Of a DNA stretch of 50,271 nucleotides, positions 1-25,099 are shown one piece after another. Each line of letters opens with the position of its first letter. The first letter of the stretch is position 1. Source of the DNA: Candidatus Omnitrophota bacterium (GTDB lineage: Bacteria > Omnitrophota > Gorgyraeia > 1-14-0-20-64-10); NCBI GenBank assembly GCA_023818695.1, contig JAMWCF010000004.1, positions 1 to 50,271 on the forward strand. The letters run 5' to 3'. The translations under genes and the position numbers were made by a program. The notes beneath the pieces were generated by a model. That model did not search any database and was not told the origin of the DNA. It was given only the letters and a program-made list of their open reading frames with translations.

Positions 1-3000
1 TCCAGCTTCACGTTCGTCACCGTCGACGGACTCGTCGTCGTAATCCGAATCGTGTGGCCGCTCGAGGACACCGGCAAATCCGCGTTCGGATTCGGGTACA
101 GGTCCACCGTCACCACCGGCCGGATCGCGAAGTTGTTGTCCGAGGCGTCCCACACCACTGACGGATAGTCCGGGTCCTCCACCTTGATTTTGGCCGTCTC
201 CGTCTTTACATCCGCCACCACCCAGTCGTAGCTCTGCGGCCCGTTGCCGCTGTTGACGATGTTCTGGCCCGCCGGCCCCCCCACCGTCGCCTGACCAATC
301 AACGTCCAGTTCGACCCGCCGTCCGTCGAGTAATACAGGTTCACCGGCTCGACATTCCCCGTTCCGGTCCACGTGATCTGTTTCGTCACCCCCTCATTCC
401 AAATGATGCCGGCCCCGCTGGGAATGTTCACCTGCAGCCGCCCCAGGATCCGGTTGTTCGTGGTGGATGTCGCCACCACCGTGTTTGGATAGTTGGGATC
501 GCGGACCCGGATCTTGAACTGGGAGGTGATGTGATTCGGCGCCGGCGCCCAGTTGTTATAGGTCTGCTCCACCCCGCTGACGCCGGCCGCCACCGTGTCG
601 ATCGACGTCCAGTCGGATCCCCCATTGAGCGAATAGAGCAGCTCCACCTGGCTCCAGGTCCCGGTCGGCGTCCATTTGATGTTCCCCGCCGTCCCCACCT
701 CCCAATCTTCCGATCCGGTCGGGGCTCCCAGCGCCAGTTTCCCGGATATCTCAAAACTGTATTCGGAAACATCATTCACGTTGGGGTTGCCGGTATCCAC
801 GATCTTCACCTTCATCACCTTGCCCAGGATCTGGTCCGGTACCCCTCCCGGCCAGGGGAAACTCAAATCGGCCGGGTTAACGGCAGATCCATTGAGCTGG
901 TTCGGGAAGGTGGAGCCGCTGTTCGTCGAGTAAAAGATGTTGAGCCCGGAAAGGTTTCCGTATTTCGTCCAGGTGATCGAGTACGGCTCTCCCACATGGA
1001 GTTCGATGTTATCCGCGTTGGGGGCTGTCAGAACCACCTGCCCCTTGACGGTGAAGACGGCGTCCGAATCATCATTGACCGTCGAGTCCTGGTTATCCAC
1101 AATCTTGATCTTCGCCTGGTTGCTCGTCTGGATCGCCTCCGAGATGTACCAGGGGAAAGACAGGTCGGCCGCCGCCAGCGCCTCCGCCCCGGCGATCGTG
1201 GTGTAGGTGGGAGTGGTGGAGCTGCCGTCCGGCGCGTACTGGATCTTCACGGTGTGCCCGGCGGTCGCGAAATCTCCTTTCTTCGTCCAGGTGATGTTGT
1301 AGGTGGACCCGACGTCCCACGATTCGGTGCCGAGGGTCGGCGAAGTGAGGGTCAGGTCTCCCTCCAGTTTCGCCAGGCCGCTTCCGGTATTCACCGTGAT
1401 CCCGGTGGACGGATTGTACGCCGGGTCATAGACCCTCACCTTAAGCTGGTTCGATATGACAGCAGGCGTTGGATTCCAGTAATAAGATCCGGAGTTCGGA
1501 ACCGTGTAGGGATTGGTCCCGTTGACGTAGCTCCAAGTCGATCCGCCGTCCGTGGAATACTGGAGGATCACGTTCGAGATGCCGGTGGCCGTTCCCGGAT
1601 CCCAGTTTATGGAGTAGGTGCTCTCCGCCGTCACCGTGTGTCCGTTTTCCGGCTGCAGGATATCGAAGACGCCGACCAGGTGGAAGTCGGTCGAGGCATC
1701 CTGGATCACCAGCGCGTATCCCTCCGAGTTCGCGTCGGTCACCTTCACCCTGGCCGTCTGCGTCACCGCATCCGGCATCTCCGTCCATACATGGGAATAG
1801 GTACCGGGAACCGCGTGGGATTTTGTCGTCACCAGACTGTAGGTCGAACCGCTGTTGGAAGAGTAGTAGATCTTGACCGAGGTGATCGAACCGGTGGTCT
1901 GGTAGGTGATGTTCCGGTTCTTCGGGCTTACGCCCCAGTACTCCCCGCCGACCGGGGACTGCAAGTCGATGCCGCCGACGATGTGGAAGACCCCGGAATT
2001 CCCGTAAACGTTCGGGTTGCCGGTGACCGGTGTTGCGTCCGTGACCCGGACGACGGCGTTCTGGGTGATCTGGTCCGGCACGTAGGGGGCCGGCCAGGTG
2101 TAGGTGGTGCCGGAGGCGTTGGCCACGCCGCTTTCGATCGTCACGAAGGTGCCCCCGTTGACGCTGTAGGCGAGGTCGACGTTGGTGATTTTCGTGCCGG
2201 TCCTGCTCCAGCGGATCGCAGCACTTTGGCTCCCAACCGTCAGGTCCGCGCCCGCCGCCGGCTGCGTCACGGTGATGACAGGTCGGATTTTGAACTGGGA
2301 AGAGATCAACTGGGTCGCCGGTTTGTTCACATCGGTCAGCCGGATATAGCAGTCGTCGCTGTTCTCATCCGCCACCCCGGCGCTCCAGGGATAGGTGTTG
2401 CCGCCGCTGGAATTGTCGAAATTGCTGACGATCGTGGTGTAAGAGCCGGCCGCAGAGGTCTTGTACTCGATCTTGACGTTGGTGATGGCACCCGTGGTGG
2501 TCCAGGTGATCGATTTGCTGGTGTCTCCCACGTTCCAGATCTCACCAAACGCGGGGGAGGTAATCGTGTTGAAGGCCGGTTTCACCTCGAAGATATTATC
2601 CGACACGTCGAAGATGTTGCCCGCATAGGCATCGGTCCCTGTCTGGATCTTAACCTTGACGTCGGTGTCGATCGCCGCGGCCGGAATCGTCCAGAGATAG
2701 GGGCTGCTGTTGGTGATGGCGGTGCTTTCGATCACGCCCGGGTAGGTGCTCCCGCCGTCCGTGCTGTAATAGAGTTTCACCGTGGAGACCGGCCCGTCGG
2801 TGGTCCAGCTGATATTCTGCGACGTGCCGGCCGACCAGACCTGCGTCCCATCGGACGGGACAAGGATGACCAGTCGGGAAACCATCGTGAAAGGGTCGGT
2901 GGAGACTACCCCCTGCGAGGGATCGGCGCTTAAGCGGAGCTTGATTTTCATTTGCGTGTTCTGCTCGGTCGATATCGCGTTGCCCGGAATCAGCCAGTCG

Positions 3001-6000
3001 TACTGTCCCAGGGAAGAGGCCACGCCGTCCTGCACCGTTCCCAGGTAGGTCGAACCGCCGTCTGTCGAGTATTTGATGTCGATGTTCCCCATTGAGGCCC
3101 CGACGCGGGTCCAGGTGATCTGCTCCGTGGTCCCCATCTTCCAGTTGTTCGGGTAGGGGGCGGTGGCAGGGTAGGTGAGGGTCAGTTTCTGAATCTTGAA
3201 GGAGCCGGAGACCCCTGCCACGCCGCCGGCAGACGGGTCACTGTCATCCGGATCGGACACTTTGATTTTGCAGGTCTCCGAGGTCTGATCTGTAACCGGC
3301 CAGTCGAAGAAGCTCACCGTGTCCGGGTTCAGCCCCGTGGTGATGGAAATCGGGTAATCGTTGCCGGCGCCGCCGTTGGTCTTGGAGAGGTCGATATTCA
3401 AGTTGCCGTACGTCGCCTGGGTGACGCCGGCGACAGTCCAGCTGATCCTCTTGGTCGATCCGACAAGCCATGTCTCCCCGGCGATGGGAGCGTCGACCAC
3501 GATGTCTCCCTTGATCTTGAAGATGCCGGACTCCCCGTAAACGTTGGCCGGATCGGAACCGACGCCGGTCTCTTCCACTCGAACCTTCACGTTGTTGCTC
3601 ACCGAAGGGGGCGTATCCCAGCTCAAGGAGCCCTGGTCGGCATCCACGCTGGCGCCGCCAGGCACCTCGGTCCAGGTGCCGCCGTTTATGCTGTAAAGAA
3701 TCTTGACCTGGTCCAGGGCGGCGGCCGGGTCCACCACCCAGGTGATTGGATAAACGGTATCAACCCGCCGGATATCGTTGGTCACCGGGGAGGTGACGGT
3801 GATGGAGGGAACGATTTCAAAGGTTTCATCCTGGCCCACCAGGTCGGGGCCGGTGTCCATGTTGTCATGGTCGACCGTTTCCCAGATCCGTATTTTCCCC
3901 GCCGTGGTGGGGGTCGTGCCGGCCGGGATCAGCCAGGCGTAGGTCCTGTTGGCTGCTGTGCCGGCGTCATAATCGGTGACGATCGCCGGATCGACCCAGG
4001 AAACACCGGTGGTCCGGGAGTAATAGATGTCGACGTTGCCAACCTGCCCGTCTACCGTCCAATCGATGTTGTAGGCCTTCCCCGTGGCCCACACATCGGT
4101 GACAGCCGGCGAGGTGATGGTGATCGTCGGACGGATCTCAAAATCGCCATTCGATGCATCTTGGACGGTGTCCACCGTCAACCCGGACCCTTCGTGCTTG
4201 ACCCGGATCCTCATCGTCTCGCCGGTGTAGTCAGGCGCAATGGTCCAGCTCTTGGTGCCCGCCGTGCCGCTGACGCCGGTGAAGAGGGCCGTTCCCAACC
4301 AGCTCGAGCCGCTGTCGATGGAAAGCTCGATCTTGACGGTACCGATGTTGCCGGTGTGGTTCCACTCGATATCGTGGGTGGTGCCGACGTTCCAAATCTC
4401 GCTGCCGTTCGGGGCCGTCACCGTGACCGACCCTAGGATCACGAATGGGCCGTTGGAGACATCGAAGTTCCGACTACTGGTGGAGATGCTGGGGTCTGAG
4501 ATCTTGATCTTGCAGTTGCTGGAGATGATGCTGTCGTTGCCGCTGCCCATGGTGGCCGGGATGTTCCAGGCGTATTGCCCGGCGTCGGCCTGAATGTTCG
4601 CGGTGGTGTCCACAATCATGTAGGGGAAGGTCGAACCGCCGTCTGTGGAGAGCTCAATCCGAATGTTGTCGTCCTTGATATTGTGAGCCCAGTTCCAGGT
4701 GATCATGTGGGTGCCAGCCCCCGGCTGGTCGATCGCCCATATCTCAACGTCGTCCACCTCCTGGAAAATGCCGTCTCCGTCCAGGTCCCCGTTGGGGCCG
4801 GTGATATTCAGCGGGGGGAACTCCCCGACCCAATAGCTGGTGGTAACTGTCGACGTCGCCGCAGTTTCGCGAGTCAATACCAAGCTTTGCGCGCCGGAGA
4901 GCTGCCCTCTGACCATGATCTCATCCAGGCCGTTCTGGTCACTCGTGTTGCCCGCCGTAGAGATAAAAGCGAAAGAACGGTTAAGATCAATGGTGTTCCC
5001 CAAACTGATGGTCGATGCCGTCCCGGTAAAGGAGCCCGTCCCTTTTTGCGAAAAAACCTCGTTTTTGAACTCCAGGAGCTGCCAAACGACGTTTGTCGCA
5101 TTGGTGGTGCCGTACCGGGTGAATGTCAGATTATTCACCGTGTTTCCTGTGCCGGTCATGGTGGCATAGACGCTGTACCGGTTCTCGCGGCCGGCGGCGG
5201 AGGAGGTCGGCCGCCTCTGGACAAAAAGCATCGATTTGTCCCCCTTCACAGCGTTGTAGCCGCCGCTGGTCAAGCTCACCGAGGCTTGGGTGGCACCGTT
5301 GGCGATCTGCGTCACCCCCTGCTGGATGTCCACATCGGTGTCGAACTCGATCACCTGGTAAGAGATATCGTTGTTATAGGTGGAAGTGGCCTCGCCTCTC
5401 TCAATCAGCAGAGACTGGGTGGTTGGCTCCGCCCCGGTCAGGCGGGCCGCGTATTGGTTGAACTCGTCGCCGGTTGTGCTGTTGGCCAGCGATTTCCAGC
5501 TGATGATCGGGAAGGAGCGGTCCAGCACGACGGAGGATGGCAGGGTGATCGTCTTGGAGGTGGTTGTCTCCGAAAAGACGCTGAACCCCGTTATCACATT
5601 GACCCCGGAATCAAACTCCACCACCATCCAATCGATGGTTATCGCCACCGAGGACACCTGTCGCGCAAATTGGATAGCGGTGGGGTCATCGATCATAGCC
5701 ATGACGTCCTGCCTTCTTCGGTCATTATCGTTGCAGGAAGCGGTGGCGATGATGAACGTCTTGTTGAGATCCAGATTGACCCCTCCCAACTGGCCCGACA
5801 AGCTCACGACCAGGTTTTCCTGGGAAGTACTCATCGTGGTGGTCCCGCGCAGGACCCTCTTGATCTGGAAGGCGGCCGCCTTCGGCGCGTCAATCCCCTC
5901 CAGGAGCGCTTTCAGAGGCCGGGGGGCGGAAGGTGGAATCGGCAGGGGGACACCAATCACCGCCATCATCAGGACCAGCAGGTGGACAAGCGTCTTGAAC

Positions 6001-6017
6001 CAGAGGGTCCCTTTCAT
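1..6017 (-). CDS. Giant secreted surface/adhesin-like protein (>2005 aa, 3' end outside window): signal peptide, four ~88-aa 'W-x-V-x-E-F' repeats, then ~15-16 tandem ~100-aa Ser/Thr-rich Ig-like repeats
   Basis: ATG at 6017 overlaps the upstream TGA (ATGA). Translation begins MKGTLWFKTLVHLLVLMMAVIGVPLP. The same frame gives coherent protein at the points checked (4430: SVTVTAPNGSEIWNVG; window start: GHTIRITTTSPSTVTNVKL). A YSTDGGSTW/Y-type motif recurs about every 300 bp. It is absent from the ORF track, consistent with no stop codon inside the window. Confidence 0.9.
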   Translation of the reverse strand, partial: MKGTLWFKTLVHLLVLMMAVIGVPLPIPPSAPRPLKALLEGIDAPKAAAFQIKRVLRGTTTMSTSQENLVVSLSGQLGGVNLDLNKTFIIATASCNDNDRRRQDVMAMIDDPTAIQFARQVSSVAITIDWMVVEFDSGVNVITGFSVFSETTTSKTITLPSSVVLDRSFPIISWKSLANSTTGDEFNQYAARLTGAEPTTQSLLIERGEATSTYNNDISYQVIEFDTDVDIQQGVTQIANGATQASVSLTSGGYNAVKGDKSMLFVQRRPTSSAAGRENRYSVYATMTGTGNTVNNLTFTRYGTTNATNVVWQLLEFKNEVFSQKGTGSFTGTASTISLGNTIDLNRSFAFISTAGNTSDQNGLDEIMVRGQLSGAQSLVLTRETAATSTVTTSYWVGEFPPLNITGPNGDLDGDGIFQEVDDVEIWAIDQPGAGTHMITWNWAHNIKDDNIRIELSTDGGSTFPYMIVDTTANIQADAGQYAWNIPATMGSGNDSIISSNCKIKISDPSISTSSRNFDVSNGPFVILGSVTVTAPNGSEIWNVGTTHDIEWNHTGNIGTVKIELSIDSGSSWLGTALFTGVSGTAGTKSWTIAPDYTGETMRIRVKHEGSGLTVDTVQDASNGDFEIRPTITITSPAVTDVWATGKAYNIDWTVDGQVGNVDIYYSRTTGVSWVDPAIVTDYDAGTAANRTYAWLIPAGTTPTTAGKIRIWETVDHDNMDTGPDLVGQDETFEIVPSITVTSPVTNDIRRVDTVYPITWVVDPAAALDQVKILYSINGGTWTEVPGGASVDADQGSLSWDTPPSVSNNVKVRVEETGVGSDPANVYGESGIFKIKGDIVVDAPIAGETWLVGSTKRISWTVAGVTQATYGNLNIDLSKTNGGAGNDYPISITTGLNPDTVSFFDWPVTDQTSETCKIKVSDPDDSDPSAGGVAGVSGSFKIQKLTLTYPATAPYPNNWKMGTTEQITWTRVGASMGNIDIKYSTDGGSTYLGTVQDGVASSLGQYDWLIPGNAISTEQNTQMKIKLRLSADPSQGVVSTDPFTMVSRLVILVPSDGTQVWSAGTSQNISWTTDGPVSTVKLYYSTDGGSTYPGVIESTAITNSSPYLWTIPAAAIDTDVKVKIQTGTDAYAGNIFDVSDNIFEVKPAFNTITSPAFGEIWNVGDTSKSITWTTTGAITNVKIEYKTSAAGSYTTIVSNFDNSSGGNTYPWSAGVADENSDDCYIRLTDVNKPATQLISSQFKIRPVITVTQPAAGADLTVGSQSAAIRWSRTGTKITNVDLAYSVNGGTFVTIESGVANASGTTYTWPAPYVPDQITQNAVVRVTDATPVTGNPNVYGNSGVFHIVGGIDLQSPVGGEYWGVSPKNRNITYQTTGSITSVKIYYSSNSGSTYSLVTTKSHAVPGTYSHVWTEMPDAVTQTARVKVTDANSEGYALVIQDASTDFHLVGVFDILQPENGHTVTAESTYSINWDPGTATGISNVILQYSTDGGSTWSYVNGTNPYTVPNSGSYYWNPTPAVISNQLKVRVYDPAYNPSTGITVNTGSGLAKLEGDLTLTSPTLGTESWDVGSTYNITWTKKGDFATAGHTVKIQYAPDGSSTTPTYTTIAGAEALAAADLSFPWYISEAIQTSNQAKIKIVDNQDSTVNDDSDAVFTVKGQVVLTAPNADNIELHVGEPYSITWTKYGNLSGLNIFYSTNSGSTFPNQLNGSAVNPADLSFPWPGGVPDQILGKVMKVKIVDTGNPNVNDVSEYSFEISGKLALGAPTGSEDWEVGTAGNIKWTPTGTWSQVELLYSLNGGSDWTSIDTVAAGVSGVEQTYNNWAPAPNHITSQFKIRVRDPNYPNTVVATSTTNNRILGRLQVNIPSGAGIIWNEGVTKQITWTGTGNVEPVNLYYSTDGGSNWTLIGQATVGGPAGQNIVNSGNGPQSYDWVVADVKTETAKIKVEDPDYPSVVWDASDNNFAIRPVVTVDLYPNPNADLPVSSSGHTIRITTTSPSTVTNVKL

Positions 6018-6424
6018 GGCGCGGTCTGCTCCCTGGAGCTGTAGGCCCCTTTCAACGTCTGCTTGACGAGACCAATCTGAACGGCGGCTGTTTTCGTGAC
6101 GATCCGGGTCCCCTCCCGGTCGAGCCGGTAAGCCTGCTTGTACTTCACCTCGACGGTGTCTCCCCGCTGCAGTTCGGCCAAAGACTTCAGGGGGGATTTC
6201 AGCTTCGTTTCACTCGTGATGGGAATCAGCATCTCCTCCGCCTGGCCCTTGGACCTGGAAAACTCGACGCTGATCGACCGCTTGCCAACATGGACCAGCT
6301 GGCCGATGACCTCCCGCAGATCGGTCTTCTCATCTTCTACGGCGAATTCAGCTCGCGCGCCGACCGGACAGGACAAGGCCGACAGAAGAACGAAAGCAAG
6401 CAGAAAGACGGTCGGTATTCTCAT
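6014..6424 (-). CDS. Small secreted hypothetical protein, probably OB-fold-like beta protein
   Basis: 136-aa ORF with a signal peptide (MRIPTVFLLAFVLLSALSCPVGARA) and the motif SLAELQRGDTVEVKY. It overlaps both neighbours. Confidence 0.75.
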   Translation of the reverse strand: MRIPTVFLLAFVLLSALSCPVGARAEFAVEDEKTDLREVIGQLVHVGKRSISVEFSRSKGQAEEMLIPITSETKLKSPLKSLAELQRGDTVEVKYKQAYRLDREGTRIVTKTAAVQIGLVKQTLKGAYSSREQTAP

Positions 6425-7746
6425 CAGAGCGTCCTCCGGGGGCTGTCAGACGGCTGGACCCCGATGAAAACGAAATCCTGCGGCGGCCCCTCTTTCGGGT
6501 GCCGGCTGCAGATCCCTCTCATCTCGCCGCCCCGCAGCTCCCCTCTCCAGAAGACAACCTCCTCCTTGGGCCCTTCCTGCATCGTCTCCCATCGCAGGGT
6601 GCCGTCCGCGTGAAGCACGGAGGTGTAATTGGACCCTTCAAACCCCCGGCCGGAAAGGTGCGAAGAAACCATGGTTCTGCCGTCAAAACGCAGGGTATCC
6701 ATCTCCAGCTCCGGATTCCCGGAGGCGTACATCGGCTTCATCTGAATTTCCCAGCGGGTGCCGGCCAGCTCCGGCGAAGAAACGAAAGAGGCGGAGCGGA
6801 CTTCCGGATTCGATGACACGGCGATCTCCTGCCGAGCAATCGCCGGCCCCTTTGAGATGCGCGGCTCCCCGCCGCCGACCGAGGCGGTCTTTTGCGCCGG
6901 CTGCGGTGCGGGAAGGCCCACCCCGGGACCGACGTTCACCAGACCGGCGGTATTCAGCGAAATCCAGGCGGTCAACACAAGCGCCACGCTGGCCATCGTG
7001 AGGGAAAAACGCTTGTCCAGATCTTTCTCAAGGGCGGTCAACGCGACAACCGGTCCTCCGGGCGTTGACGCTTTCGCGGCCTCCGGAGAGGGAAGATCCT
7101 GCGCTTGTTCCCGGACGGAATCCACGAAAGCGGCCGGGCCAACCACCGGTCTGCTCAAAAGCTTTTCCCGGCGGAGCCACTCCTGCTCCGGGATCGAAAC
7201 CAGGTAATCTTCATAGGTCATGCCGGAATGGGCGGACTGCATGTGATACAGCAGCTCCCCGGCTTCAGCGGAGAGGTCCAAATGGGAGAGAATCCCCTTG
7301 CCCTCCTCCAGATAGCTTGGCAGACTGCTGAACCGGTAAGAGGAAGGCCTCTCGGCCAGCCCCTTTCGGACAGGCAAAGCATGGATGTAATCGACCAGCG
7401 CGGAAAGGGAGCTTTTCTTCTCCACCACAGACGCCTTGTACCTCCCCTTGAAGAGATGGCCGGTGAAATCGTGGCGTTTGCGGAACAGCTTGGTGTAGCG
7501 GGAATTCAAGGCATGCATCAGATCGGAGACGGTGGTGCCGCGGGCCACCTCCAGAACAAGGTGGATCTGGTCCGGAAGCAGGAGATAGCCGTACAGCTTG
7601 AAGTCGTACTGGCCGCGGTAGCCATCCAGAAGTTCCTGGAAGGTCCGGAAATCGGCTTCATCCTTGAAGAGGAAGCCGTGGGCCCCTGCCTGACAGGTCA
7701 CGTAATAGAGAACCCCTTCCATATGGATCCGCAGGGGTCTAGGCAT
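6424..7746 (-). CDS. RAYT/IS200-like (Y1 HUH) transposase domain with degenerate active site, fused to a TM helix and a C-terminal extracytoplasmic beta domain (440 aa)
   Basis: The N-terminus MPRPLRI..GVLYYVT..YGYLLLPDQIHLVLE..LNSRYT..GHLFKGRYKASVVE..DYIHALPVRKGL..YRFSSLPSY follows the RAYT pattern. It is followed by hydrophobic FSLTMASVALVLTAWISL and a domain shared with 23292-23924. Start placed at ATG 7746 (purine-rich RBS) rather than 7932. Confidence 0.85.
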   Translation of the reverse strand: MPRPLRIHMEGVLYYVTCQAGAHGFLFKDEADFRTFQELLDGYRGQYDFKLYGYLLLPDQIHLVLEVARGTTVSDLMHALNSRYTKLFRKRHDFTGHLFKGRYKASVVEKKSSLSALVDYIHALPVRKGLAERPSSYRFSSLPSYLEEGKGILSHLDLSAEAGELLYHMQSAHSGMTYEDYLVSIPEQEWLRREKLLSRPVVGPAAFVDSVREQAQDLPSPEAAKASTPGGPVVALTALEKDLDKRFSLTMASVALVLTAWISLNTAGLVNVGPGVGLPAPQPAQKTASVGGGEPRISKGPAIARQEIAVSSNPEVRSASFVSSPELAGTRWEIQMKPMYASGNPELEMDTLRFDGRTMVSSHLSGRGFEGSNYTSVLHADGTLRWETMQEGPKEEVVFWRGELRGGEMRGICSRHPKEGPPQDFVFIGVQPSDSPRRTL

Positions 7747-7808
7747 GGGGGATCCCCCCCTCGGACAGGGAAACCGGCTGGCGGGAGTAGGAGCGGATGA
7801 GCGGCCCG

Positions 7809-7863
7809 GGTGCCTGGCACCGGCGCTCGGGTGCCCAGCACCTGCCCAGGAGTGCCTGGCACT
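7809..7863. repeat. Three 13-bp REP-like palindromes with exact 21-bp periodicity
   Basis: GGTGCCTGGCACC (7809-7821), GGTGCCCAGCACC (7830-7842), AGTGCCTGGCACT (7851-7863). Confidence 0.85.
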
Positions 7864-7876
7864 TGAGCACGAAAAC

Positions 7877-7900
7877 AAAAAAAAGAGCGGCTTCCACCGC
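7877..7900 (-). terminator. Putative intrinsic terminator (riboswitch expression platform)
   Basis: The minus strand reads GCGGT-GGAA-GCCGC followed by TCTTTTTTTT: a short stem with a GNRA loop and U-tract, about 75 nt downstream of the aptamer. Confidence 0.55.
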
Positions 7901-7971
7901 ACGATCGATCGCTTTGGCCGCCTGCCGGCCAAGGCGCTTCACCCAATTGTGCCCTTCTTCTGTTTTCGTCA

Positions 7972-8055
7972 TCACTGGCAACCCGGCGGCCCAACCATCC
8001 TCGGGCCCGTAGTTTTGCGCCCCCGCCTTTCGGCGGGTTTGCCTTTTTCAGTGCT
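7972..8055 (-). ncRNA. c-di-GMP-I (GEMM-I) riboswitch
   Basis: The minus strand reads CACTGAAAAAGGCAAACCCGCCGAAAGGCGGGGGCGCAAAACTACGGGCCCGAGGATGGTTGGGCCGCCGGGTTGCCAGTG. It has GGCAAACC, a P2 stem with GAAA tetraloop, CGCAAA, a P3 ending GCCGGGTTGCC, and P1 CACTG/CAGTG. Confidence 0.85.
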
Positions 8056-8073
8056 GTGGTGCTTCTAAAGGAA

Positions 8074-8103
8074 AAGGTACCTGATTTTTCAAGCCCCTGT
8101 CAA
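8074..8103 (-). promoter_or_regulatory. Putative sigma70 promoter for the riboswitch/RAYT-fusion/adhesin operon
   Basis: TTGACA (8103-8098), 18-nt spacer, TACCTT (8079-8074), directly upstream of the aptamer. Confidence 0.55.
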
Positions 8104-8236
8104 CCCAGGCGGCAGATTATTACAACCCCTTCCATGCCAAAGAATTATATTCTTGCAAAAGGTGCATTTTAAACCTTAGTTTGTCATCTGCTTTCTCCTG
8201 CGGCAGGATTTTGCATGGAAATAGGTATCCCCCTAT

Positions 8237-8563
8237 GTGAATCAAGAGATCGAACCCCTGGTCCGGTCACCGGTTACCATTGAATTCCTGGATGTGGCCG
8301 AATCGGCCTGTTTTCCAAGCGGCATCTCCCAGCATTACGTGCTGCAGGTCGACATCGCGCTGACGACGAGCCCACGCTACCACTACACCGCTCAAAAACT
8401 GCTGGTCCTGCGCAAAAGAACCGGGAAGACGGAATACGTGGAAGACGAGAGGGCGATTCCTGATTTCTTCGATTCGGACACATACCGGCGCTTGAAGGAA
8501 CGGCTCCTGCAGCTCTTCCAGGAAGCGGCGCAGCCCTCTCCCGCCTCCGATCCTGCCGGTTAA
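8237..8563 (+). CDS. Hypothetical protein (108 aa)
   Basis: GTG-start ORF with globular composition. It fills the gap between the AT-rich promoter region and the convergent TMTC-like gene, whose stop it overlaps. Confidence 0.55.
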   Translation: MNQEIEPLVRSPVTIEFLDVAESACFPSGISQHYVLQVDIALTTSPRYHYTAQKLLVLRKRTGKTEYVEDERAIPDFFDSDTYRRLKERLLQLFQEAAQPSPASDPAG

Positions 8564-10332
8564 GGGCCAGCGGATTCCCTCGCCTTGAGCATCTTGAGAT
8601 TCGAAGCCGCCATCTCAAAGTCCGGGTCGATCTGGAGCGCTTTTTCCCACATCTCCTGCGCCTTCCCGAATTCACCCCTCTTGAAATAAACCGCCCCGAG
8701 GTTGTTGTAGACCGCCTTGTAGCCGGGGTTCAGCTGGAGGGCCTTCTCGTAGCTCCTGATGGCCTGTTCAAACTGGCCTGATTTCAGACAGGCGTTGCCC
8801 AGGTTGTTGTAGGTCTTCGGGTTATGCGGATTGAGCTGAAGGGCTTTCTGGTACTGGACAATGGCCCTTGGATAATCCCCTTTCAGGTCGTAGGCGATCC
8901 CCAGGTTGTCGTGGGCCTGATCGAATGCTGGGTTGATCCGGACCGCTTCCTGGAACTCCCGCACCGCCCTGTCGACCTCCCCCCGATCGAGAGAGAGAAC
9001 CCCCAGCTCGTTGTGCGCCCGGAAAGAACCGGGAGAATAGCGGATCGCCAGCTCGAAAAAGCCGACAGGGTCCCTCCAGATCCGGTTCTGCCGGATGGTC
9101 AGCGCCGAAAAAAGAACGAGGACGGCAACGGATACAAGAAACCCTCCCCTGCGAACGCTCCCTTTCAGTTCCGGCTTCAATAACTCCGTCCCATCGGCGA
9201 TCCCTCCTAAAATCGAGGCAAAAAAACCGATGGAGGGCAGGTAGAGCCAGTGATCCGCAATCGTTGTGTTGATCGGCACGATGTTGGCCATCGGCAGGAG
9301 AGCGATGAAAAACCAGCTCAAGCCGAAAAAACACCCTTTGGACCGTTTGTAAACCCAGGCCATGAAAAAGCCGATAGCCAGCAGGGCCGCTATCGAACCC
9401 CATGTTCGGAACTCCCAAAACCCGGCTGAAAACGGGATGCTCTTCTCTATGTGAATCCGGACCGGCACGAAGAGGGATCCGATGAGGCGGACGAAGGCCT
9501 CTGCCGTCGTCAGCAGGCGTACCGTCAGGGGAGGGGCCGCCTGCTCGGACGGCGTCGGGAAATTCAGGACGGTCAACCGGAGCGCCGCGTAAAGGCCCAG
9601 GAGGAGCACGAACGGAATCGTTTTCCAGGCCTGATCCTTCCGAAAAACCAGCACAGCCGCCAGCAGAAGCAGGGGAAAGGCCACAGCCATCTCCTTGGAC
9701 AGCAGAGCGCACAGGAAAGAAGCGAGGGACAGGAGATAGAGCAAAGGATTCAACGGCGCGCAAGCCGGTCTCCCTGTTTTCCCTGGTTTTCCGGGCTTCC
9801 CCTTCTTTGCCTCCGCCCCAACCCTGCTCGCTTCGTACCCCCATGCCTTGAAGAAGAGCCACAGGGAAAGGAGCGAGAAAAAGGCCGCCTGGGAATCGGC
9901 CCTGGAGGAGATGTAGTCGACCACGGTGCTGTTGATCGGGTGAACCAGGAAAAGCAGACCGGTTCCAACGGCGACCCACCGCCTCCCGAAAAGGAGATCG
10001 AAGAGCAGGAAGGAGAAAAAGGCGCACAGGATATGGAACACCAGGGAGGTGAGGTGGTAGCCCAACGGGTTCAGCTTCCAGATGGAAAAATCGAACAGAA
10101 GGAAAAGGGTCTGCAGGGGCCGGTAAAAGTTGCTCACCCCCGCCGTGCTGTCATAGAGGTGCCGGCTGAAGATTTCCGGCAGGTACCGCAGATCCCGGAT
10201 CAGGTGGTTGTTGACAACCAGGTACGGGTCGTCCCAGATAAAAGGGCTTTGCAGGGAGTTGGCATAGACGGCCAAGCCAATCAGCGCGTATCCCAGCAGG
10301 ACAACCGCGTTGAAAACCGGTTTTCTCCCCAT
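8560..10332 (-). CDS. TMTC-like GT-C protein glycosyltransferase with C-terminal TPR repeats (590 aa)
   Basis: First-loop SPFIWDDPYLV, FYRPL, GYHLTSLVFH, FLVHP, ALLSKEMA, ADHWLYLPS, RQNRIW, many TM helices, then TPRs (AHNELG, AHDNLG, TYNNLG, VYNNLG). The ATG at 10332 overlaps the upstream stop. Confidence 0.88.
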   Translation of the reverse strand: MGRKPVFNAVVLLGYALIGLAVYANSLQSPFIWDDPYLVVNNHLIRDLRYLPEIFSRHLYDSTAGVSNFYRPLQTLFLLFDFSIWKLNPLGYHLTSLVFHILCAFFSFLLFDLLFGRRWVAVGTGLLFLVHPINSTVVDYISSRADSQAAFFSLLSLWLFFKAWGYEASRVGAEAKKGKPGKPGKTGRPACAPLNPLLYLLSLASFLCALLSKEMAVAFPLLLLAAVLVFRKDQAWKTIPFVLLLGLYAALRLTVLNFPTPSEQAAPPLTVRLLTTAEAFVRLIGSLFVPVRIHIEKSIPFSAGFWEFRTWGSIAALLAIGFFMAWVYKRSKGCFFGLSWFFIALLPMANIVPINTTIADHWLYLPSIGFFASILGGIADGTELLKPELKGSVRRGGFLVSVAVLVLFSALTIRQNRIWRDPVGFFELAIRYSPGSFRAHNELGVLSLDRGEVDRAVREFQEAVRINPAFDQAHDNLGIAYDLKGDYPRAIVQYQKALQLNPHNPKTYNNLGNACLKSGQFEQAIRSYEKALQLNPGYKAVYNNLGAVYFKRGEFGKAQEMWEKALQIDPDFEMAASNLKMLKARESAGP

Positions 10333-11213
10333 CAAGCAGCCTTCCCCAAAACCCACAGGACGTTGCAAGGCGTCAGAAAATTCAGCGGGGTCGACAAACT
10401 GCTTATCATCCCCTTCGGGTTGAAAAGCTCGTAAAATCGGGCCGGGAACCGCCGGAGCCGCAGAAACCGGTAAAAGCTCGGCACCCAATTGGGGATCGTG
10501 TCGGTCCCCCTGTCGACGATCCGGATCCCGAGCCGGTCGAACAGGGCGAACAGCGACCGGCTGTTGAAATGCCACAGGTGCCGGGGAGGATCCCACAGGT
10601 TCCAGTACCTGCCGAAGAGCCGGCGTTCGAAACAGCCGGTGTTCGGCACCACGACATAAAAGGAGGAAACACCCGATTCCCTCAGATTGTTCAGCAGCAT
10701 GGCCGGCTCTTTGACGTGCTCCAGAACATGCCGGATGATTGCCGTCGCGCAGCCCCGAATGCCTGGATTTTCAATCCGGCAGCGGTCATAATCGATGCGG
10801 GCGTAAGGAACATCCTGTCTCTCCTTCAGCAGCAGGGGCCGTTCCGGCTGCGAATCAACAGCCAACACGGGAAATCCCCTGGACCAGATGAGGCGCGAGA
10901 AATCCCCCGTCCCGCATCCTATGTCGACGAACATCCCCGGCTCGATCCGGCGAAGGATCCTGTTGAGTTCCATGGAAAGCAGGATGTTTTTGAGGACGGA
11001 ATGGATCCTGCCGGGGGCCGACTTCATCAGGATGCCGACGTCCGCCTGGTAATACCTGCTCAAGTCGTCCGGCACAGGGACCGTCTTCATCACCGAACAG
11101 CAGTCCCACTCTTCGATCGAAAAGGTTTCCGGACCCGCGATATCCGGCACACCGTCGATCCTCCGGCCGGGTTTTGAACCGGGTCGACCGCAGATCAGGC
11201 AACCGGACGTCAC
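10332..11213 (-). CDS. Class I SAM-dependent methyltransferase (293 aa)
   Basis: N-terminal CLICG, VDIGCGTG motif I, RHVLEHVKEP, WDPPRHLWHF. GTG start at 11213 overlaps the GT9 stop, with a GGAGG RBS. Confidence 0.85.
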   Translation of the reverse strand: MTSGCLICGRPGSKPGRRIDGVPDIAGPETFSIEEWDCCSVMKTVPVPDDLSRYYQADVGILMKSAPGRIHSVLKNILLSMELNRILRRIEPGMFVDIGCGTGDFSRLIWSRGFPVLAVDSQPERPLLLKERQDVPYARIDYDRCRIENPGIRGCATAIIRHVLEHVKEPAMLLNNLRESGVSSFYVVVPNTGCFERRLFGRYWNLWDPPRHLWHFNSRSLFALFDRLGIRIVDRGTDTIPNWVPSFYRFLRLRRFPARFYELFNPKGMISSLSTPLNFLTPCNVLWVLGKAA

Positions 11214-12361
11214 CCCTCCCTCCGGGGGAGCAGGAGATCCGACGCCGCAGCAGCAATCTCCTGCGCTGGAATCTCCTGAAGGCACCGGACATGGATCGGA
11301 CAGGCGGGGGTATAGCCGAACCGGGTGCAGGGACTGCAGGGCAGATGCCGGTTCAGGACCCGGACCAGGCCGCCCGGGGGAGCCCATTTCTCCTCGATCC
11401 CGGAGCCGAAGAGGGCGACCACCGGCGTCCCGAGGCCGTAAGCCAGATGCATCAGCCCGGAGTCGGCGCCGATAAAAACCGTGGAAGCCCTCAAAAGGGC
11501 GGCTGTCTGGAGAATGCTTGTTTTCCCCGCCATGTTGATCAAGGACGTTCCTTGGCACGATCCCTCAATCCGTTCCGCCAGAGGAGCTTCCTGCTTGCTC
11601 CCTATCAGGCAGACCGAAAATCCCCTCTCAAGCAGAAGGGAAACCAGCCGGAGGAGCTTTCCCTCTTCCAGCCGGCGCTCCCGGATCGACCCTCCCAAAG
11701 CGACCGCCGCGGCATTCCTGCCCTCCAGAAGCCGGCGCGCCCAATCGGCCTCTTCCCGGGGGAGAGCCAGAAACGGCCTGCTCCAATCCCACCGGTGCAT
11801 CCGCCCGGTGACGGCCCGCAGCATGTTCAGGAAAGAGATCCCTTCGAACTCATCGTGCCGGTACGCGACCATCTTCGTGTAGCAATGGCGGCGCAGGGGA
11901 TTCGTGTCAAAACCGATCCGGCACGGGGCGTTCAAAGAGGCGGCGATAAAGGCGTTGAGCAGGTGCCATTGCTCGGTGTCGAACACGAGATCGTATCTGT
12001 CGGCTTTCAGGATCCCCCACCACCTCCAGGGAGCCGTATCATAGCAGTAAACGCGGCGGATCGCCGAGTCCGGCGCCATCTTGAAAACTCCTGCGTTTCT
12101 TCCTTCCGCCAGCACATCGATGGTCGCTTGTGGAAAGGTCTCCTTGAGCTGTCGGATCATCGGCACCAGAAGAACCGCGTCCCCCAGCCCCCCCGGCCGG
12201 ATGATCAAGACCCGGTTCACCTCCTCCGGCACCGGCTTCTCCGCCGGGCGCCGGAAGCGGCCGGGAAACAGGAGAATCCGCCCAACGCACCAGTCGAGGA
12301 GCTTCAATCCCTTGATGCGCCACGGACCAGAACAGGCGACGACCTCCCTTAGAGTCGGCAT
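11210..12361 (-). CDS. Glycosyltransferase family 9 (heptosyltransferase-like)
   Basis: RVLIIRPGGLGDAVL, FIGADSGLMHLAYGLGTPVVALFG, LPCSPC..C..CLQEI. Confidence 0.9.
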   Translation of the reverse strand: MPTLREVVACSGPWRIKGLKLLDWCVGRILLFPGRFRRPAEKPVPEEVNRVLIIRPGGLGDAVLLVPMIRQLKETFPQATIDVLAEGRNAGVFKMAPDSAIRRVYCYDTAPWRWWGILKADRYDLVFDTEQWHLLNAFIAASLNAPCRIGFDTNPLRRHCYTKMVAYRHDEFEGISFLNMLRAVTGRMHRWDWSRPFLALPREEADWARRLLEGRNAAAVALGGSIRERRLEEGKLLRLVSLLLERGFSVCLIGSKQEAPLAERIEGSCQGTSLINMAGKTSILQTAALLRASTVFIGADSGLMHLAYGLGTPVVALFGSGIEEKWAPPGGLVRVLNRHLPCSPCTRFGYTPACPIHVRCLQEIPAQEIAAAASDLLLPRREG

Positions 12362-17102: not shown

Positions 17103-20100
17103 CTACTGGGATTCGGTCTGGCCGGCGGCGGAAGAAACGGAAAGAGGAACCGGCCTGGCTGAAAGGAAATCCCCCTGGCGGATCGAAAGGCGGTTCTCCA
17201 TTTTCCTGGTGATATAGGCCATCGCCAAACCACTCTGATCGATGTCGCCCAGCTCGACCTCCACCACCTCTTTGCCTCCGGCGCTCAAGCGCATCGCCGA
17301 CCCGGCCTTCGCCCACTCAACATTCTCGACGGAGAGAACCAGGAATCCGAGTTTATCCTCCACGCGATAGACCTTGACCGGAGAAACCGGTCCCTCGGCG
17401 AGGGCGGGTGGCGGTTCCTGCGGCTGGAGCGCAGCCGTTTCCGTGCCAGCCGACGGCCGACTGATGGAGGGGATGGGGGCCGACGGCGGTTCCTGTTCGA
17501 TCGGACGCCTTAACTCCTCGCGCAATCGCTTCAAATCCCGCTCCTTTTCATCCAGCTGTTCCGTTAGGGTCCTGATCCGGTCTTCGTAACCGCTTTTCAC
17601 GGTGTCCCTTTCCTGCAGACTCTGCTGGTAGGCGGCCTGCGCTGTCTGAAGATCTTTCTGGAGCCGATCCAATTCCAGCCGGATGGAACGCTCCTCGGTC
17701 AGGAACTGGTCCTCTCTCCCCTGGGCCTGGATCCGGTACCTCTGGGTCTCGGACTGGGCGTCGGCCAACTCCTTCCGGAGCGCCGTCCTTTCGGACTGCA
17801 TCCTGTCCAGCTGCTCATCCCGTTCTCCCAGCGTCAGCTTGAGGGTGTCCCTCTCCTGCTCCAGCAGACCGATCTGGTCCCGAAGACGACCGGCCTCTTC
17901 CCGGAGCCCACGGAGTTCATTGAGCTGTTCGGATTGGACCCTCTGGCTGATCCTCAACTGTTCCTGGATATCGGCCAAAGTCTGCTGCGTGCTGGTGTAA
18001 TCGGACTTCACCTGCGAAGATGCGGATTTCAGGTCGGCCAGAGAGGAGGTCAGCCGCCGGAGTTCCTCCTCTTTCGCTTCAAGTGTCTGCTTGAGGCGGT
18101 CATTTTCCGTTACCAGCGCGGCCTGCTGCCTCTCCAGGCGCCGGATCTCTTCCTGCTGACCGGCTATCTTCTGCTGGGCATCCGTCGAGAATTTCGAAAG
18201 ATCCGTCGCCTCCCGCTGAAGGGTCTGCTGCAGCTCTTCCAAATGCTGAATCCTCTCCTGCAAATCGGACACATGGGCCTGCGAGGCCTCCAACCGGACC
18301 TCCTGCCTCTCCCGGCTCTGGCTCAATTCGGTATTCAGCTGCCGAACATGGGAAAGAGCCTCCGACAGCTTCAAACGCTCGCTCTTCAACTGCGCCAGTT
18401 GCTGCTGGGCCTGGTCAAGCGCGGTGCTTCGATACGCGGCCTCCTCCTGCTGCGCCTGGATCTTCATCTGGGCCGCTGCCAACCCCTTCTGCGCTTCCAC
18501 CATCTGGGCTTGGATCTTATCGGCCGCCTCCTGCTGCGCCTTCACCTGTTTCTCCAGAAAATCCGCTCTCTGAAGCAGCGTGCCTCTTTCCTCGGATAGG
18601 GCTTCTATCTCCTTCTGCGCGGCCCGGATCGCTTCTTCTCTCGATTGAAGGGTCCCCTTTAACTCATCCAACGTTTTCTGGAGTTCGGCCTCCCGCTGGT
18701 TCAGGCGGACGTTGTTGTCCCGCTCTTGCGCCAGCTGTTTTTCCATCTGGGCAAGGGCGCTGCGCCCCGCCTCAAGCTGGGCGCTTTTTGCCTGCAGCGA
18801 CTCCGTCAGCACCGCTCCCTCCTTCTTCGCCTGGGAAAGCTCCTGGACAATCTCCTTGATCCGGCTGTCCAGCTGGCTCTTCTCCTTCTGCGCCCCTTTT
18901 AGGGAGTTCTCCAACTGGGCGATCTTCCTGGCTGCCTGGGTCGCCTCATCCTCCAACCGGGATTTCATGTTCCGGAAATCATCCAAAGATCTGGAAAGAT
19001 CCCCCTGCGTCTCCTGAAGCTGCTGCTGTAGCTTGGCCTCCTTCTTGGACGCTTCCTCCAAACGGCGGACCAGGGAACCACGCTCTTCCTGGACGCGCTG
19101 AATCTGCTCCTTCAGGCCGACGATGAGATCATGCTGCTCTTCCCTGGCCTTGCCCAGCTCACCAGCCAGCTTCTGGAGCCGATCCAGCTCCTTGGCCTGA
19201 AGGGAGCGCTCCTGCGCCATCAAGGCCAGATCATTCTCGAGAACCGCCGTCGCCTCCTTCTGCTTGCGGCGCTCTTCCCGCTCCGTCTGCAACTGCTGGT
19301 TGGCGGCGGCGAGCTCTTTCGACAGGCGTTCCGCGGTCCTGCCGGCGTTTTCCACCTCCTGTTTCAGCTTCAGCACCGATTCTTCCGACAGCCCGAGCGT
19401 TTTCCTCATCTGGGCAAGATCGGCTTCACGCTGGGCGAGCTCTTTCCGAAGCTGCTCGACCGCCTTCTTCCCCTCCTGGTCCGACTGGGACAGACGGCGG
19501 ATCTCTTCTGACTTCGCCCGGATCTCTTTCTGGTCGATTCTCCCCTGTTCCTCCAGCGCATTCGAAGAGGCGGCAAGAGCCGATAACTCCTTGCGCGCCG
19601 AAGCCAGCTCCGCCTCCATCTGCTGCCGCGTCCTCTTCAAATCGGCATACTCCCGGCGCAGGTTTTCCAACTCGGCGGAAAGAGCCCTGACCTTTTCCTG
19701 TTCCTCTCGCACAGTGGCTTCCAAACGGGCTTCGGACGCTTCCTTGGCTTGCCTGGCCTCTTGAAGTTCTTTGTCGGTCTTCTGAAGCCGCTCCTCCAAA
19801 CGGGAGGCCTGTGTCGAAGCCGCTTCCAGCTCCTTCTCCAGCGCCGCCTTTCTATCCTGGAGCCCCAACACCTCCTTTTTCAGATCGGCCAGAACAAGCT
19901 GCTGCTCTGCCCGCTCCGCCCGAAGATCGTCGTTGAACTGCCTCTGTTTGGCCAGTTCGGCCTCCCGCATTTTCAGATCCTCCGTCAAAACAGCCGCCCG
20001 CCTTTCGAGCTGATCGATGGAAGTGGTGAGATCCCGGTTCCTCTTTTCACTGCTGCGAAGGGATTCCTGCGCGGAACCGAGCTGCTTGCCTAGAACCTGC

Positions 20101-22972: not shown

Positions 22973-23014
22973 GGACCCTTCCTGTCCCCTCTGTTTTTCT
23001 TCAGGCAAGGATTA

Positions 23015-23291: not shown

Positions 23292-23924
23292 TTATTTTTT
23301 CTTCGTTTTCTTGGTTGTTGCGGCCGGCTTCTCCGGTTGAGCGGCCGGCGGGGATGTCGGCTGCGCCTGCTGCGAGACAGACGTCTCCTCGGCAGGCGGC
23401 TGCGCCGGCGTTTCCGTGGCCGGAGGCGGTTCAGGGGGGGCAGCCGGCTTGAGCCGCCCGGAGAAGGACCAGTCGGTCACTGTGCCGCTGGCATCATGCT
23501 GACTCAAGATGCCGCTCATGGTTTCTCCAAAGAGCTGTCCCTGCCAGAAAACCACGTCTCCCCCCTCCGAAGCGCTCTGCATCGTCTCCCAGACGGGCAC
23601 CCCGCCCTTGATCGAAATGCTGAAATTGGTCGGTTCGTATCCCTTCTTCCCGAACCATTCGGAGCTGATTTTTCCCTTTTCGAAACGGAGGATGTCCGCA
23701 ACGGCCTTTTCCTTTTTGTCGCTCATGGGGGCCAGTTGAATTTCCCACTGGGTGCCGTTCAGGGCTTCGCGGGCCTTCTTCTCCGCTTCCAGGGCCAGCT
23801 CTTCCGGGGTTTTCTGCGGCTTCGCCGTCGTCGGCGCGGGTTTCTTGGCGCTCCAGCCATCCGAAGCCCACAGAAAAACCGCGAGAAAACCGGCCAACCA
23901 CACGAAGGACTTTCTATTCGTCAT
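23292..23924 (-). CDS. Secreted protein carrying the same beta domain as the C-terminus of the RAYT fusion, with a Pro/Ala/Lys-rich tail (~210 aa)
   Basis: Signal peptide (MTNRKSFVWLAGFLAVFLWASDGWSA), then LNGTQWEIQLAPM..DILRF..WETMQ..VVFWQG..MSGILS. Alternative start at 23951. Confidence 0.82.
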   Translation of the reverse strand: MTNRKSFVWLAGFLAVFLWASDGWSAKKPAPTTAKPQKTPEELALEAEKKAREALNGTQWEIQLAPMSDKKEKAVADILRFEKGKISSEWFGKKGYEPTNFSISIKGGVPVWETMQSASEGGDVVFWQGQLFGETMSGILSQHDASGTVTDWSFSGRLKPAAPPEPPPATETPAQPPAEETSVSQQAQPTSPPAAQPEKPAATTKKTKKK

Positions 23925-23947
23925 CTTCTCTCTCCGATCTGTCCCGA

Positions 23948-25099
23948 TCATTCTACCAGTTTCTTTTCTGTCTCCAAAGTTTCCCATGACGCGATGTATT
24001 TTCTCACCCAGGAAGCGTCCTGCGCGTGAGGCTTCAACTGAAGGTACTTCCGAAAAAACTGGACCGCTTTTTCGGTATCCGGAATATACTCGGCATAAAT
24101 GACGCCGATGTTGTAATAAGCATCGGCGTCATCGGGCCTGATCTCAACGACCTTCTTGAATTCTTTCAGCGACTTGCCGTACTGTTTCTGCTCCGTCAGC
24201 AAAACGCCCAGGTTGTAATGCATGTCGGCCGTTTCCTTCACCAGCCGCTCATGCTGGCGGGCCAGCTTCGTCACTTCCGAGGGGACCCTGTTTGCCCTCC
24301 TCTCCAGCTCTTCGCTCTCGGCGACGAGGGCGATATAATCTTTTTCGAGCTTCTTGAGCCGGTCCATCAACTTCTGCAGCTGCGCTCTGCCTTTCTCCTC
24401 TTTGTCCGAGACCTCGCGCAGCGCTTTCTCGGCCGCCTTCAGTTCCCTTTCATTTTCCGCTAGCTCTTTTTCCCGCTCAAGCAGTTCCTTCTTCAGCTGC
24501 TGCTCCTTCGCCCCTTTCTGTGCGAGAGTCAGCTGGCGCTGGACCGCATCCCGCTGGGCCGTCAGCTTCTCGTTCATCTCCTTCAGGGAGGCCATCTGGC
24601 TCTCCAGCGGTTCCCTCTGTCCCAACAAGAGTCTGTTTTCGCGAGTCAGCCGCTTGATCACGGCATTCAGGCGCTGTCTTTCCCCCGCCAGAAGCTGGCG
24701 GTCCCCCTGCAGCCCTCTCAACTGCGACGCCAGACTGTCCCGCTCCTCGATCAAAACCTGTTTTGCCTGGTCCCACACCGCCTGTTCCCGCTGCAGCCGG
24801 GCATGCTCTTTCTCCAGATCCGCGTATTTCCGACTCAAGCTGTTGTAATCCTGCTGGAGCAGCTCCCATTGGTGGCCCAGAGAAGCGTACTGCTCCGAGA
24901 GGATCCTCTTGCGCTCTTTGGTCTGGGCCAGCTGGGTGGAGAGATCACCGTTGAGATAAAACAAGACGAAGACCACGCTGATCCACACCAGCGTCCCGGT
25001 CAGGTAAATGATCCTTCTCTTCCAGCTGAACGGCGCGGGAGCGCTTCTGGGCGAAAAGGACGCCGGCTGCGGCGGGGGAGTGGGTATCTCTGTCGTCAA
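23948..25099 (-). CDS. Membrane-anchored coiled-coil protein with C-terminal TPR repeats
   Basis: TM IIYLTGTLVWISVVFVLFYL, ~230 aa coiled coil, TPRs MHYNLGVLL and AYYNIGVIY. Confidence 0.85.
   Translation of the reverse strand: MTTEIPTPPPQPASFSPRSAPAPFSWKRRIIYLTGTLVWISVVFVLFYLNGDLSTQLAQTKERKRILSEQYASLGHQWELLQQDYNSLSRKYADLEKEHARLQREQAVWDQAKQVLIEERDSLASQLRGLQGDRQLLAGERQRLNAVIKRLTRENRLLLGQREPLESQMASLKEMNEKLTAQRDAVQRQLTLAQKGAKEQQLKKELLEREKELAENERELKAAEKALREVSDKEEKGRAQLQKLMDRLKKLEKDYIALVAESEELERRANRVPSEVTKLARQHERLVKETADMHYNLGVLLTEQKQYGKSLKEFKKVVEIRPDDADAYYNIGVIYAEYIPDTEKAVQFFRKYLQLKPHAQDASWVRKYIASWETLETEKKLVE

Follow-up and report, generated by a model that had tools for sequence, protein, structure and literature searches.

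A conserved Omnitrophota leader combining a predicted c-di-GMP-I riboswitch with REP units ahead of a RAYT-like gene and a giant protein gene

In the stretch of DNA analyzed here, 50,271 nucleotides of a Candidatus Omnitrophota bacterium (contig JAMWCF010000004.1 of assembly GCA_023818695.1, positions 1 to 50,271; hereafter the window), a leader containing a promoter, a riboswitch aptamer, a terminator, and several short palindromes precedes a gene for a transposase-like protein (gene 1), a small gene (gene 2), and a gene for a giant protein (gene 3). The question raised by this locus is what a transposase-like gene is doing between a riboswitch and a giant protein, and what the palindromes in front of it are. 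The favored answer, which is held with moderate confidence, is that this is a conserved Omnitrophota leader in which a terminating riboswitch for cyclic di-GMP (c-di-GMP), of class I, is combined with repetitive extragenic palindromic (REP) units that would still be bound by the domain of gene 1 that resembles a REP-associated tyrosine transposase (RAYT). The whole leader and operon are read on the minus strand, with the leader elements preceding the ATG at 7746.

The source genome (G000) is a partial assembly of 936,820 bases that is 61% complete. A profile made from four gene 1 proteins was used to search 401 sampled genomes of the class and gave full-length matches in about 49 of them; the 31 orthologous loci analyzed are the best 30 stored matches and that of genome G004. 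Two of these, L088 and L090, have one in-frame stop each and were omitted from the alignment (A2), which has 29 rows. The genomes span 37-68% G+C and their gene 1 proteins are 24-38% identical to the G000 protein. Gene 1 (7746..6424, 440 amino acids) is followed by gene 2 (6424..6014, 136 amino acids), which has an N-terminal signal-like segment and no match in Pfam or NCBIfam, and by gene 3 (6017..3), a giant protein of more than 2005 amino acids with immunoglobulin (Ig)-like repeats whose gene is cut by the window end; the three genes overlap by 1 nt and 4 nt. The Pfam matches of gene 3 are a Kre9_KNH-like Ig domain and related weak matches. Three distant relatives (G042, G029, and G004) have full-length relatives of gene 1, each with a GEMM-I aptamer upstream, and the same order of gene 1, small protein, and giant open reading frame (ORF), the last being of more than 1446, 4976, and 3214 amino acids, respectively. 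The small proteins resemble one another in G000, G004, and G029, and repeats are shared among the giant proteins. Of the 31 loci, 21 have a GEMM-I aptamer that exceeds the gathering score directly upstream of gene 1, and three (L094, L100, and L102) have it directly after gene 1, before the small-protein gene; in seven none reaches the gathering threshold, although three of these have a weak one (L078 with 34.6 bits, L085, and L101). The regulator-like gene is outside riboswitch control in L094, L100, and L102.

The palindromes form an array at 7862..7809 with a 21-nt period: GTGCCAGGCAC at 7862..7852, GTGCTGGGCAC at 7841..7831, and GTGCCAGGCAC again at 7820..7810. The count within the window is marginal, with three matches at one mismatch or fewer against 0.84 expected and a count of three reached in 4 of 100 shuffles, so the case that the palindromes are real is made by the comparative genome data. 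The motif GTGCCWGGCAC, again with at most one mismatch, is found upstream of gene 1 in 25 of the 31 loci and directly after gene 1 in three others (L086, L094, and L102). In loci with a riboswitch it mostly lies 51-67 nt downstream of the aptamer and 12-15 nt beyond the U-tract, and this fixed place in the leader is kept even in genomes that have no other copy. The extended consensus is AAAGTGCCAGGCACTTT, and a second, weaker copy is often present 20-60 nt further on. In the three loci where the aptamer follows gene 1, a terminator accompanies it, and in L094 and L102 the REP motif does so as well; this movement of the repeat with the riboswitch supports a site acting on whichever gene follows.

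What kind of repeat this is becomes clear from other genomes of the class. Most of the 401 genomes have 0-4 copies of the motif, and exact copies number two in G042 and one in G029, all at the locus. Some genomes have bursts, whereas counts of a reversed-pattern control stay at 0-6. The burst genomes are G044 with 138 copies, G008 with 95, G304 with 53, G017 and G014 with 51 each, G173 with 36, G283 with 34, G038 with 30, and G308 with 26. These belong to several families of the class, and their relatives hold 0-4 copies. The bursts look like repeated, independent expansions of a REP. Copies in G008 are arranged as inverted pairs, with GGTGCCWGGCACC separated by an AT-rich linker of about 11 nt from an inverted copy. 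In a survey of Y1 transposase paralogs at 25 other loci (a C-terminal-only match, L028, was omitted), the motif is on both flanks of the gene in only four, from G008, G038, G044, and G017, and these four genes encode short proteins in which both the HUH motif and the YIHLNP-type tyrosine motif are intact; none of the remaining 21 loci is motif-flanked. A RAYT with its REPs has been defined (PMC3333891), and the motif bursts, the inverted pairs, and the flanked intact RAYT genes are the reason for which the palindromes match that definition. The high copy number expected of a REP is found in the relatives (26-138 copies) and not in G000, which has three exact copies, two in the leader and one in a coding frame. 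The third (contig C4, position 286669) was set aside as a chance match, lying as it does inside a long coding frame. As judged from their distribution, the palindromes are REP units of the RAYT subfamily that appears to be ancestral to gene 1. The earlier note on this DNA, made by a model from the letters alone, had described an anonymous palindrome array; the palindromes are present, but they belong to the RAYT subfamily of gene 1. REP-like sequences, GTGTCAGGCAC and GTGCCTGGCAC, also lie in the variable loop of the second long helix of the aptamer in L072 (about 12170-12215, G004) and L103 (about 1165-1205, G173); the mobile repeat appears to have inserted into the riboswitch loop of these two GC-rich relatives with the Rfam match surviving.

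An upstream REP is what the REPtron of an ancestral RAYT gene would be expected to leave behind, and the leader units could be such a neutral remnant, without present function. Gene 1 has three units upstream and none downstream, where the overlap of genes 1 and 2 has removed the REP flank. A remnant would, however, need to have persisted without change in 25 of 31 loci whose proteins are about 30% identical and whose leaders are otherwise unconserved, and where the cassette lies after gene 1 (L094 and L102) the motif follows the riboswitch and terminator, not the gene. A functionless remnant is accordingly regarded as very unlikely.

The product of gene 1 consists of a Y1 domain (residues 1-226), a membrane helix (243-269), a disordered linker, and an eight-stranded beta domain (330-430). 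Its only Pfam match is Y1_Tnp (E 1.5e-10), and the NCBIfam model for REP-associated tyrosine transposases, NF047646, is covered in full by residues 6-140 (E 8.6e-18) with 64.6 bits, which is below the NCBI cut-off of 80. In an AlphaFold model made with 29 orthologs (pLDDT 81) the N-terminal domain is confident, and its best match among solved folds is 4er8_A, in which the E. coli RAYT is bound to a REP hairpin (E 5e-7, TM 0.75 on the target). For the beta domain the fold matches are weak and lipocalin- or nitrobindin-like (E 0.007-0.03). A hydrophobic segment near residues 230-270 is present in all 31 orthologs. The hallmarks of a RAYT, HUH and a catalytic tyrosine, are incomplete in the G000 protein, which has QIH in place of HUH and keeps the tyrosine (DYIHALP). 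HUH has survived in 19 of the 31 orthologs, the tyrosine in 11, and the two together in six, and at least one catalytic motif has been lost in 25; HUH was counted by eye from 12-mers, with the histidines at the fifth and seventh letters, while the tyrosine was counted by script. Judged by these residues, the transposase chemistry of the domain has been lost in most orthologs, which directly supports the earlier suggestion that a transposase-like gene has been domesticated here.

The tyrosine kept in G000 and the six orthologs with both motifs could also mean that gene 1 is a still-active, REP-mobilizing transposase that merely happens to be under riboswitch control. This is highly improbable: the first histidine is Q in G000, the partial genome holds the leader copies and one chance in-gene match only, all 31 loci retain the fused membrane helix and outer domain, and the burst genomes have a separate, short, intact RAYT.

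The C-terminal beta domain has a paralog elsewhere in the window, a secreted protein of 231 amino acids (23292..23987, minus strand) that is 31-39% identical to the proteins encoded immediately before the cassette in G029 and G042. It precedes two ORFs on the same strand, at 21935-23008 (357 amino acids) and 17103-21938 (1611 amino acids), and the window may hold in this cluster another module of a related kind.

The aptamer (8052..7973, 80 nt, placed by covariance models) has a GAAA tetraloop on P2 and scores 71.2 bits with RF01051 (c-di-GMP-I; cut-off 35) and 72.8 bits with RF03167 (c-di-GMP-I-GGC; cut-off 59, E 1.9e-15), the latter being the top Rfam label. The RF01051 score, well over its cut-off, bears out the GEMM-I aptamer of the earlier note. 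Equivalents of G20, A47, and C92 (Vc2 numbering) are all present in the model alignment, with positions 20 and 47 also located by pattern; position 20 is the G directly before GCAAAC and position 92 the C directly before the 3' strand of P1. A47 is a ligand-contact nucleotide of the c-di-GMP-I aptamer, and the name "GGC" is taken here to mean a G at the equivalent position. The G000 aptamer has GCGCAAAA where the RF03167 consensus reads ACGCGAA, so that its A47 equivalent is A, not G, as it also is in all 23 orthologous aptamers matched by pattern. Since position 47 is A, the "GGC" label is misleading for this aptamer; it is an artefact of clan competition worth 1.6 bits and is no description of the binding site. 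Because the G20/A47/C92 triad is present, the G000 RNA is classed as an ordinary c-di-GMP-I aptamer and is predicted to bind c-di-GMP. According to PMC6140456, G20 pairs with one guanine of the ligand and C92 with the other, and riboswitches for c-GAMP have A at position 20. The G given for this position in the earlier note is confirmed by the model alignment, and the A of the 3',3'-cGAMP riboswitches (GEMM-Ib) is not found there in G000.

The messenger itself is plausible in this organism, given the four GEMM-I matches and five GGDEF genes in the partial genome. GEMM-I matches occur in 55 of 61 genomes of the class, with up to 16 per genome, a density that is unusually high for genomes of 1-2.7 Mb. 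Position 20 is A in four of 24 orthologous leaders (L075, L082, L083, and L089), one of which, L089, matches the Rfam UAU variant with 66.1 bits against a cut-off of 65.9. In some lineages the operon may therefore answer to another dinucleotide.

The aptamer is followed by an intrinsic terminator (7900..7870, found by a terminator scan), in which a GCGGU-GGAA-GCCGC hairpin (7900..7887) precedes UCUUUUUUUUGUUUUCG, the U-tract having the pattern UC-U8-G-U4 down to 7871. Five terminator-like sites lie in 7600-8400, compared with 1.1 +/- 1.4 in shuffles. Of 23 riboswitch leaders, 22 have a hairpin with T5-9 behind the aptamer, L072 being the one without, and the GNRA hairpin and U-tract of the earlier note have counterparts in nearly all of them. 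From aptamer to U-tract there are 88 nt in G000 and 133 nt in L103, compared with 29-43 nt in 20 of the 22 loci other than G000. In the minimum-free-energy fold an A-rich segment after P1 (7951..7969) is predicted to pair with the U-rich tail (7888..7869), and predicted folds place in the expression platform an extra GC-rich hairpin (7910..7937) that is absent from most orthologs. Terminator stems of the orthologs are made of REP half-sites, CCAGGCA...TGCCTGG; the G000 stem differs from this form but retains the U-tract, the spacing, and the REP array. Directly before the ATG, a Shine-Dalgarno-like GAGGGGGGG can pair with CCCCC (7747..7762, a hairpin in the predicted fold), and this pairing may add a further, translational layer of control.

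The use of REP half-sites in a conserved terminator stem also fits an explanation in which the REPs work purely through the RNA structure of the 5' untranslated region, whether as a hairpin that stabilizes the RNA, as a processing site, or as a back-up terminator; the gene 1 protein would play no part, and the riboswitch would be the sole regulator. REPs of E. coli act as mRNA stabilizers or terminators. Units 2 and 3 of G000 can form a hairpin of 13 pairs in the predicted fold, and in L082, where the first unit is altered to GTGACAGGCAC, an inverted second unit at a distance of 13 nt carries the complementary alteration, so that pairing between units is retained and the palindrome within one unit is broken. 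A role in structure alone would nevertheless permit free covariation, whereas the exact 11-mer is kept across 37-68% G+C and 24-38% protein identity; nor is a single hairpin conserved, the second copy being direct or inverted and 20-60 nt away. This explanation is considered unlikely, and the favored reading, in which the gene 1 protein binds them, is retained below.

How the riboswitch would act on the terminator is less evident from folding. Folds of the whole leader and of full or shortened aptamer-terminator transcripts from 23 loci show no clear conserved alternative structure, and plain folds were for that reason not used to assign an ON or OFF state. Instead, the last 18 nt of each aptamer were paired with the 5' arm and loop of its own terminator and compared with foreign terminators. 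Own duplexes have a mean of -8.2 kcal/mol and mismatched ones -7.5, and the observed mean is reached by a fraction of 0.005 of 2000 permutations, a value that overstates the case for pairing because related sequences are counted as independent. The tails of L079, L097, and L091 are equalled or beaten by 0, 0, and 1 of 22 foreign terminators, respectively, with changes in the two partners matched. Pairing of the aptamer tail with the terminator arm would constitute an antiterminator that competes with P1 and C92, and ligand binding would then favor termination. The family is thus read, by a slight preference, as an OFF switch. The earlier note had tied expression of the adhesin to a sessile or attachment switch; if this means that high c-di-GMP turns the adhesin on, the family-wide pairing test leans to the opposite sign, and the OFF reading is offered for the family, not for the G000 locus itself.

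Transcription of the leader can be assigned to a promoter read directly from the sequence, TTGACA (8103..8098) and TACCTT (8079..8074) with an 18-nt spacer. It is exactly where the earlier note had placed it and has equivalents of the form TTGAC(A/T)-N17-18-TAnnnT before most orthologous aptamers, three of them in the same "TCAGGTA" context as in G000; it is unlisted in a consensus scan because TACCTT has only three of the six matches to TATAAT. The scan did list a second promoter-like site, TTTAAA-N18-TATAAT, in an AT-rich stretch at 8173..8144 (10 of 12 matches). A 239-nt metatranscriptome contig from one RNA run is identical to 7870-8108 of the window, from 5 nt upstream of TTGACA to just beyond the U-tract, although such contigs reveal neither strand nor true ends. 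Its first position lies 41 nt before the start that the TTGACA-N18-TACCTT promoter would give, which suggests some transcription, or DNA carry-over, from further upstream, so this promoter may not be the only one. Within 5500-9000, coverage in both RNA runs is confined to 7870-8108, from which neither silence nor termination follows. Pieces of 31-43 nt on the aptamer core in RNA run X2 were rejected, as they continue into unlike sequence and are taken to come from riboswitches of other organisms. The gene upstream of the leader (8560-10596, minus strand) encodes a protein of 678 amino acids with many TPR repeats in its C-terminal part.

A promoter downstream of the terminator would have separated the operon from the riboswitch, as the earlier note recognized, and the consensus scan found no sigma-70-like promoter between 7870 and 7746. 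This result also bears on a reading of the palindromes as duplex-DNA operators of an unrelated dimeric transcription factor, or as part of a second, riboswitch-independent promoter. Several features would suit such a reading: AAAGTGCCAGGCACTTT is a palindrome of 17 bp, the three G000 units are 21 bp, or two helical turns, apart, and there are TGGCAC-like hexamers on the opposite strand of the motif, which recall the -24 element of sigma-54 promoters. In L084 and L088, however, only about 22 nt lie between motif and start codon, and unlike an ordinary operator the motif is a mobile repeat that flanks RAYT genes in the burst genomes. The operator or second-promoter reading is therefore improbable. 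The sigma-54 version of it was rejected, since inspection by eye of the G000 and ortholog leaders revealed no TTGC-type -12 element at the right spacing.

Under the favored reading, transcripts would start at TTGACA-N18-TACCTT, and apparently also further upstream, and the aptamer would sense c-di-GMP, with the GNRA hairpin and U-tract ending part of the transcripts at about 7877-7870. RNA that reads through would carry the genes for the RAYT-derived membrane protein, the small and presumably secreted protein, and the giant Ig-repeat surface protein. Anchored at the membrane and connected to an outer beta-barrel domain, the RAYT-like domain would still bind the REPs of the leader, whether in the form of single-stranded DNA, RNA hairpins, or duplex DNA, and this binding could provide a second input or a feedback loop on the operon or could hold the leader at the membrane. 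In this way the RAYT would have become a regulator and the REP the site on which it acts. A more specific version is offered tentatively, as somewhat less than an even chance: a decayed membrane RAYT with an outer lipocalin-like sensor would be a putative regulator that binds the REP hairpins of its own leader, perhaps including the REP-derived terminator stem.

Several observations weigh against this reading, in addition to the NF047646 score below its cut-off and the relatedness of the sequences in the permutation test. The motif GTGCCWGGCAC is missing in three of the 31 loci (L093, L099, and L100, the last having an aptamer and terminator and no REP motif within one mismatch), and the spacing and orientation of the REP copies differ between loci, which is a poor fit with one fixed operator geometry. 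The catalytic tyrosine is assumed to be that of the YIHxNP motif, a placement supported by the alignment with intact paralogs only. The fold of the whole leader is unremarkable (z -1.48), and the G000 aptamer tail pairs better with 20 of 22 foreign terminators than with its own; this poor pairing, together with the lack of a clear alternative fold, leaves switching at the G000 locus unexplained. For the RNA contig, which has no strand or true ends, DNA carry-over is possible.

Giant proteins are characteristic of Omnitrophota, and the role ascribed to them is to attach to other cells or to attack them. The leader described here is a predicted control point for such proteins that recurs across the class, and its expression platforms are ones built from a mobile repeat. 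If the more specific version above is true, expression of the giant protein would need two signals, c-di-GMP sensed by the RNA and a signal from the envelope or from contact sensed by the protein; alternatively, leader RNA or DNA held at the membrane could allow the giant protein to be exported while it is made. In three publications on Omnitrophota giant genes the main text does not contain "riboswitch" or "c-di-GMP," though the supplements may hold relevant gene-neighborhood tables, and literature searches for combinations of riboswitch, REP, RAYT, and giant protein found no earlier case. As far as these searches reach, this would be the first REP-associated transposase and repeat to survive together in a gene-control region.

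Among known systems, ToxR and CadC resemble gene 1 in predicted topology, in which one membrane helix joins a nucleic-acid-binding domain in the cytoplasm to a sensor-like domain outside, and the resemblance may extend to a possible way of working. The cytoplasmic domain of ToxR and CadC is, however, a winged helix, whereas gene 1 has only Y1_Tnp in Pfam and an HUH/Y1 fold; lacking a winged-helix domain, it is not a member of that family. The G000 aptamer and Vc2 of Vibrio cholerae (RF01051) have the same fold, score range, G20/A47/C92 triad, and GAAA tetraloop on P2. The G000 platform differs from that of Vc2 in its length (88 nt as far as the U-tract) and in the REP units that come after it, and the terminator stems of its orthologs are REP half-sites. 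RF03167, the top-scoring model, differs from G000 and 23 orthologs in its consensus G. Bc1 of Bacillus thuringiensis, as described in PMC11218506, is likewise a class I aptamer with a long platform and more than one hairpin or terminator, but it has two rho-independent terminators 28 bp apart where G000 has one terminator and then the REP array. The N-terminal domain of gene 1 resembles TnpA-REP, the E. coli RAYT (4er8_A and the NF047646 match), and as in the REPtron its cognate repeats adjoin the gene. Unlike TnpA-REP, gene 1 is fused to a membrane helix and a predicted outer beta-barrel and its HUH motif is incomplete; unlike a REPtron, the G000 locus has REPs, each a short perfect 11-13-mer, on the upstream side only and within a riboswitch leader, with no REP proliferation in the genome. 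The aptamer is thus of a known kind, and what is new is its context in a giant-protein operon, an expression platform derived from REPs, and the retention of a RAYT and REP pair.

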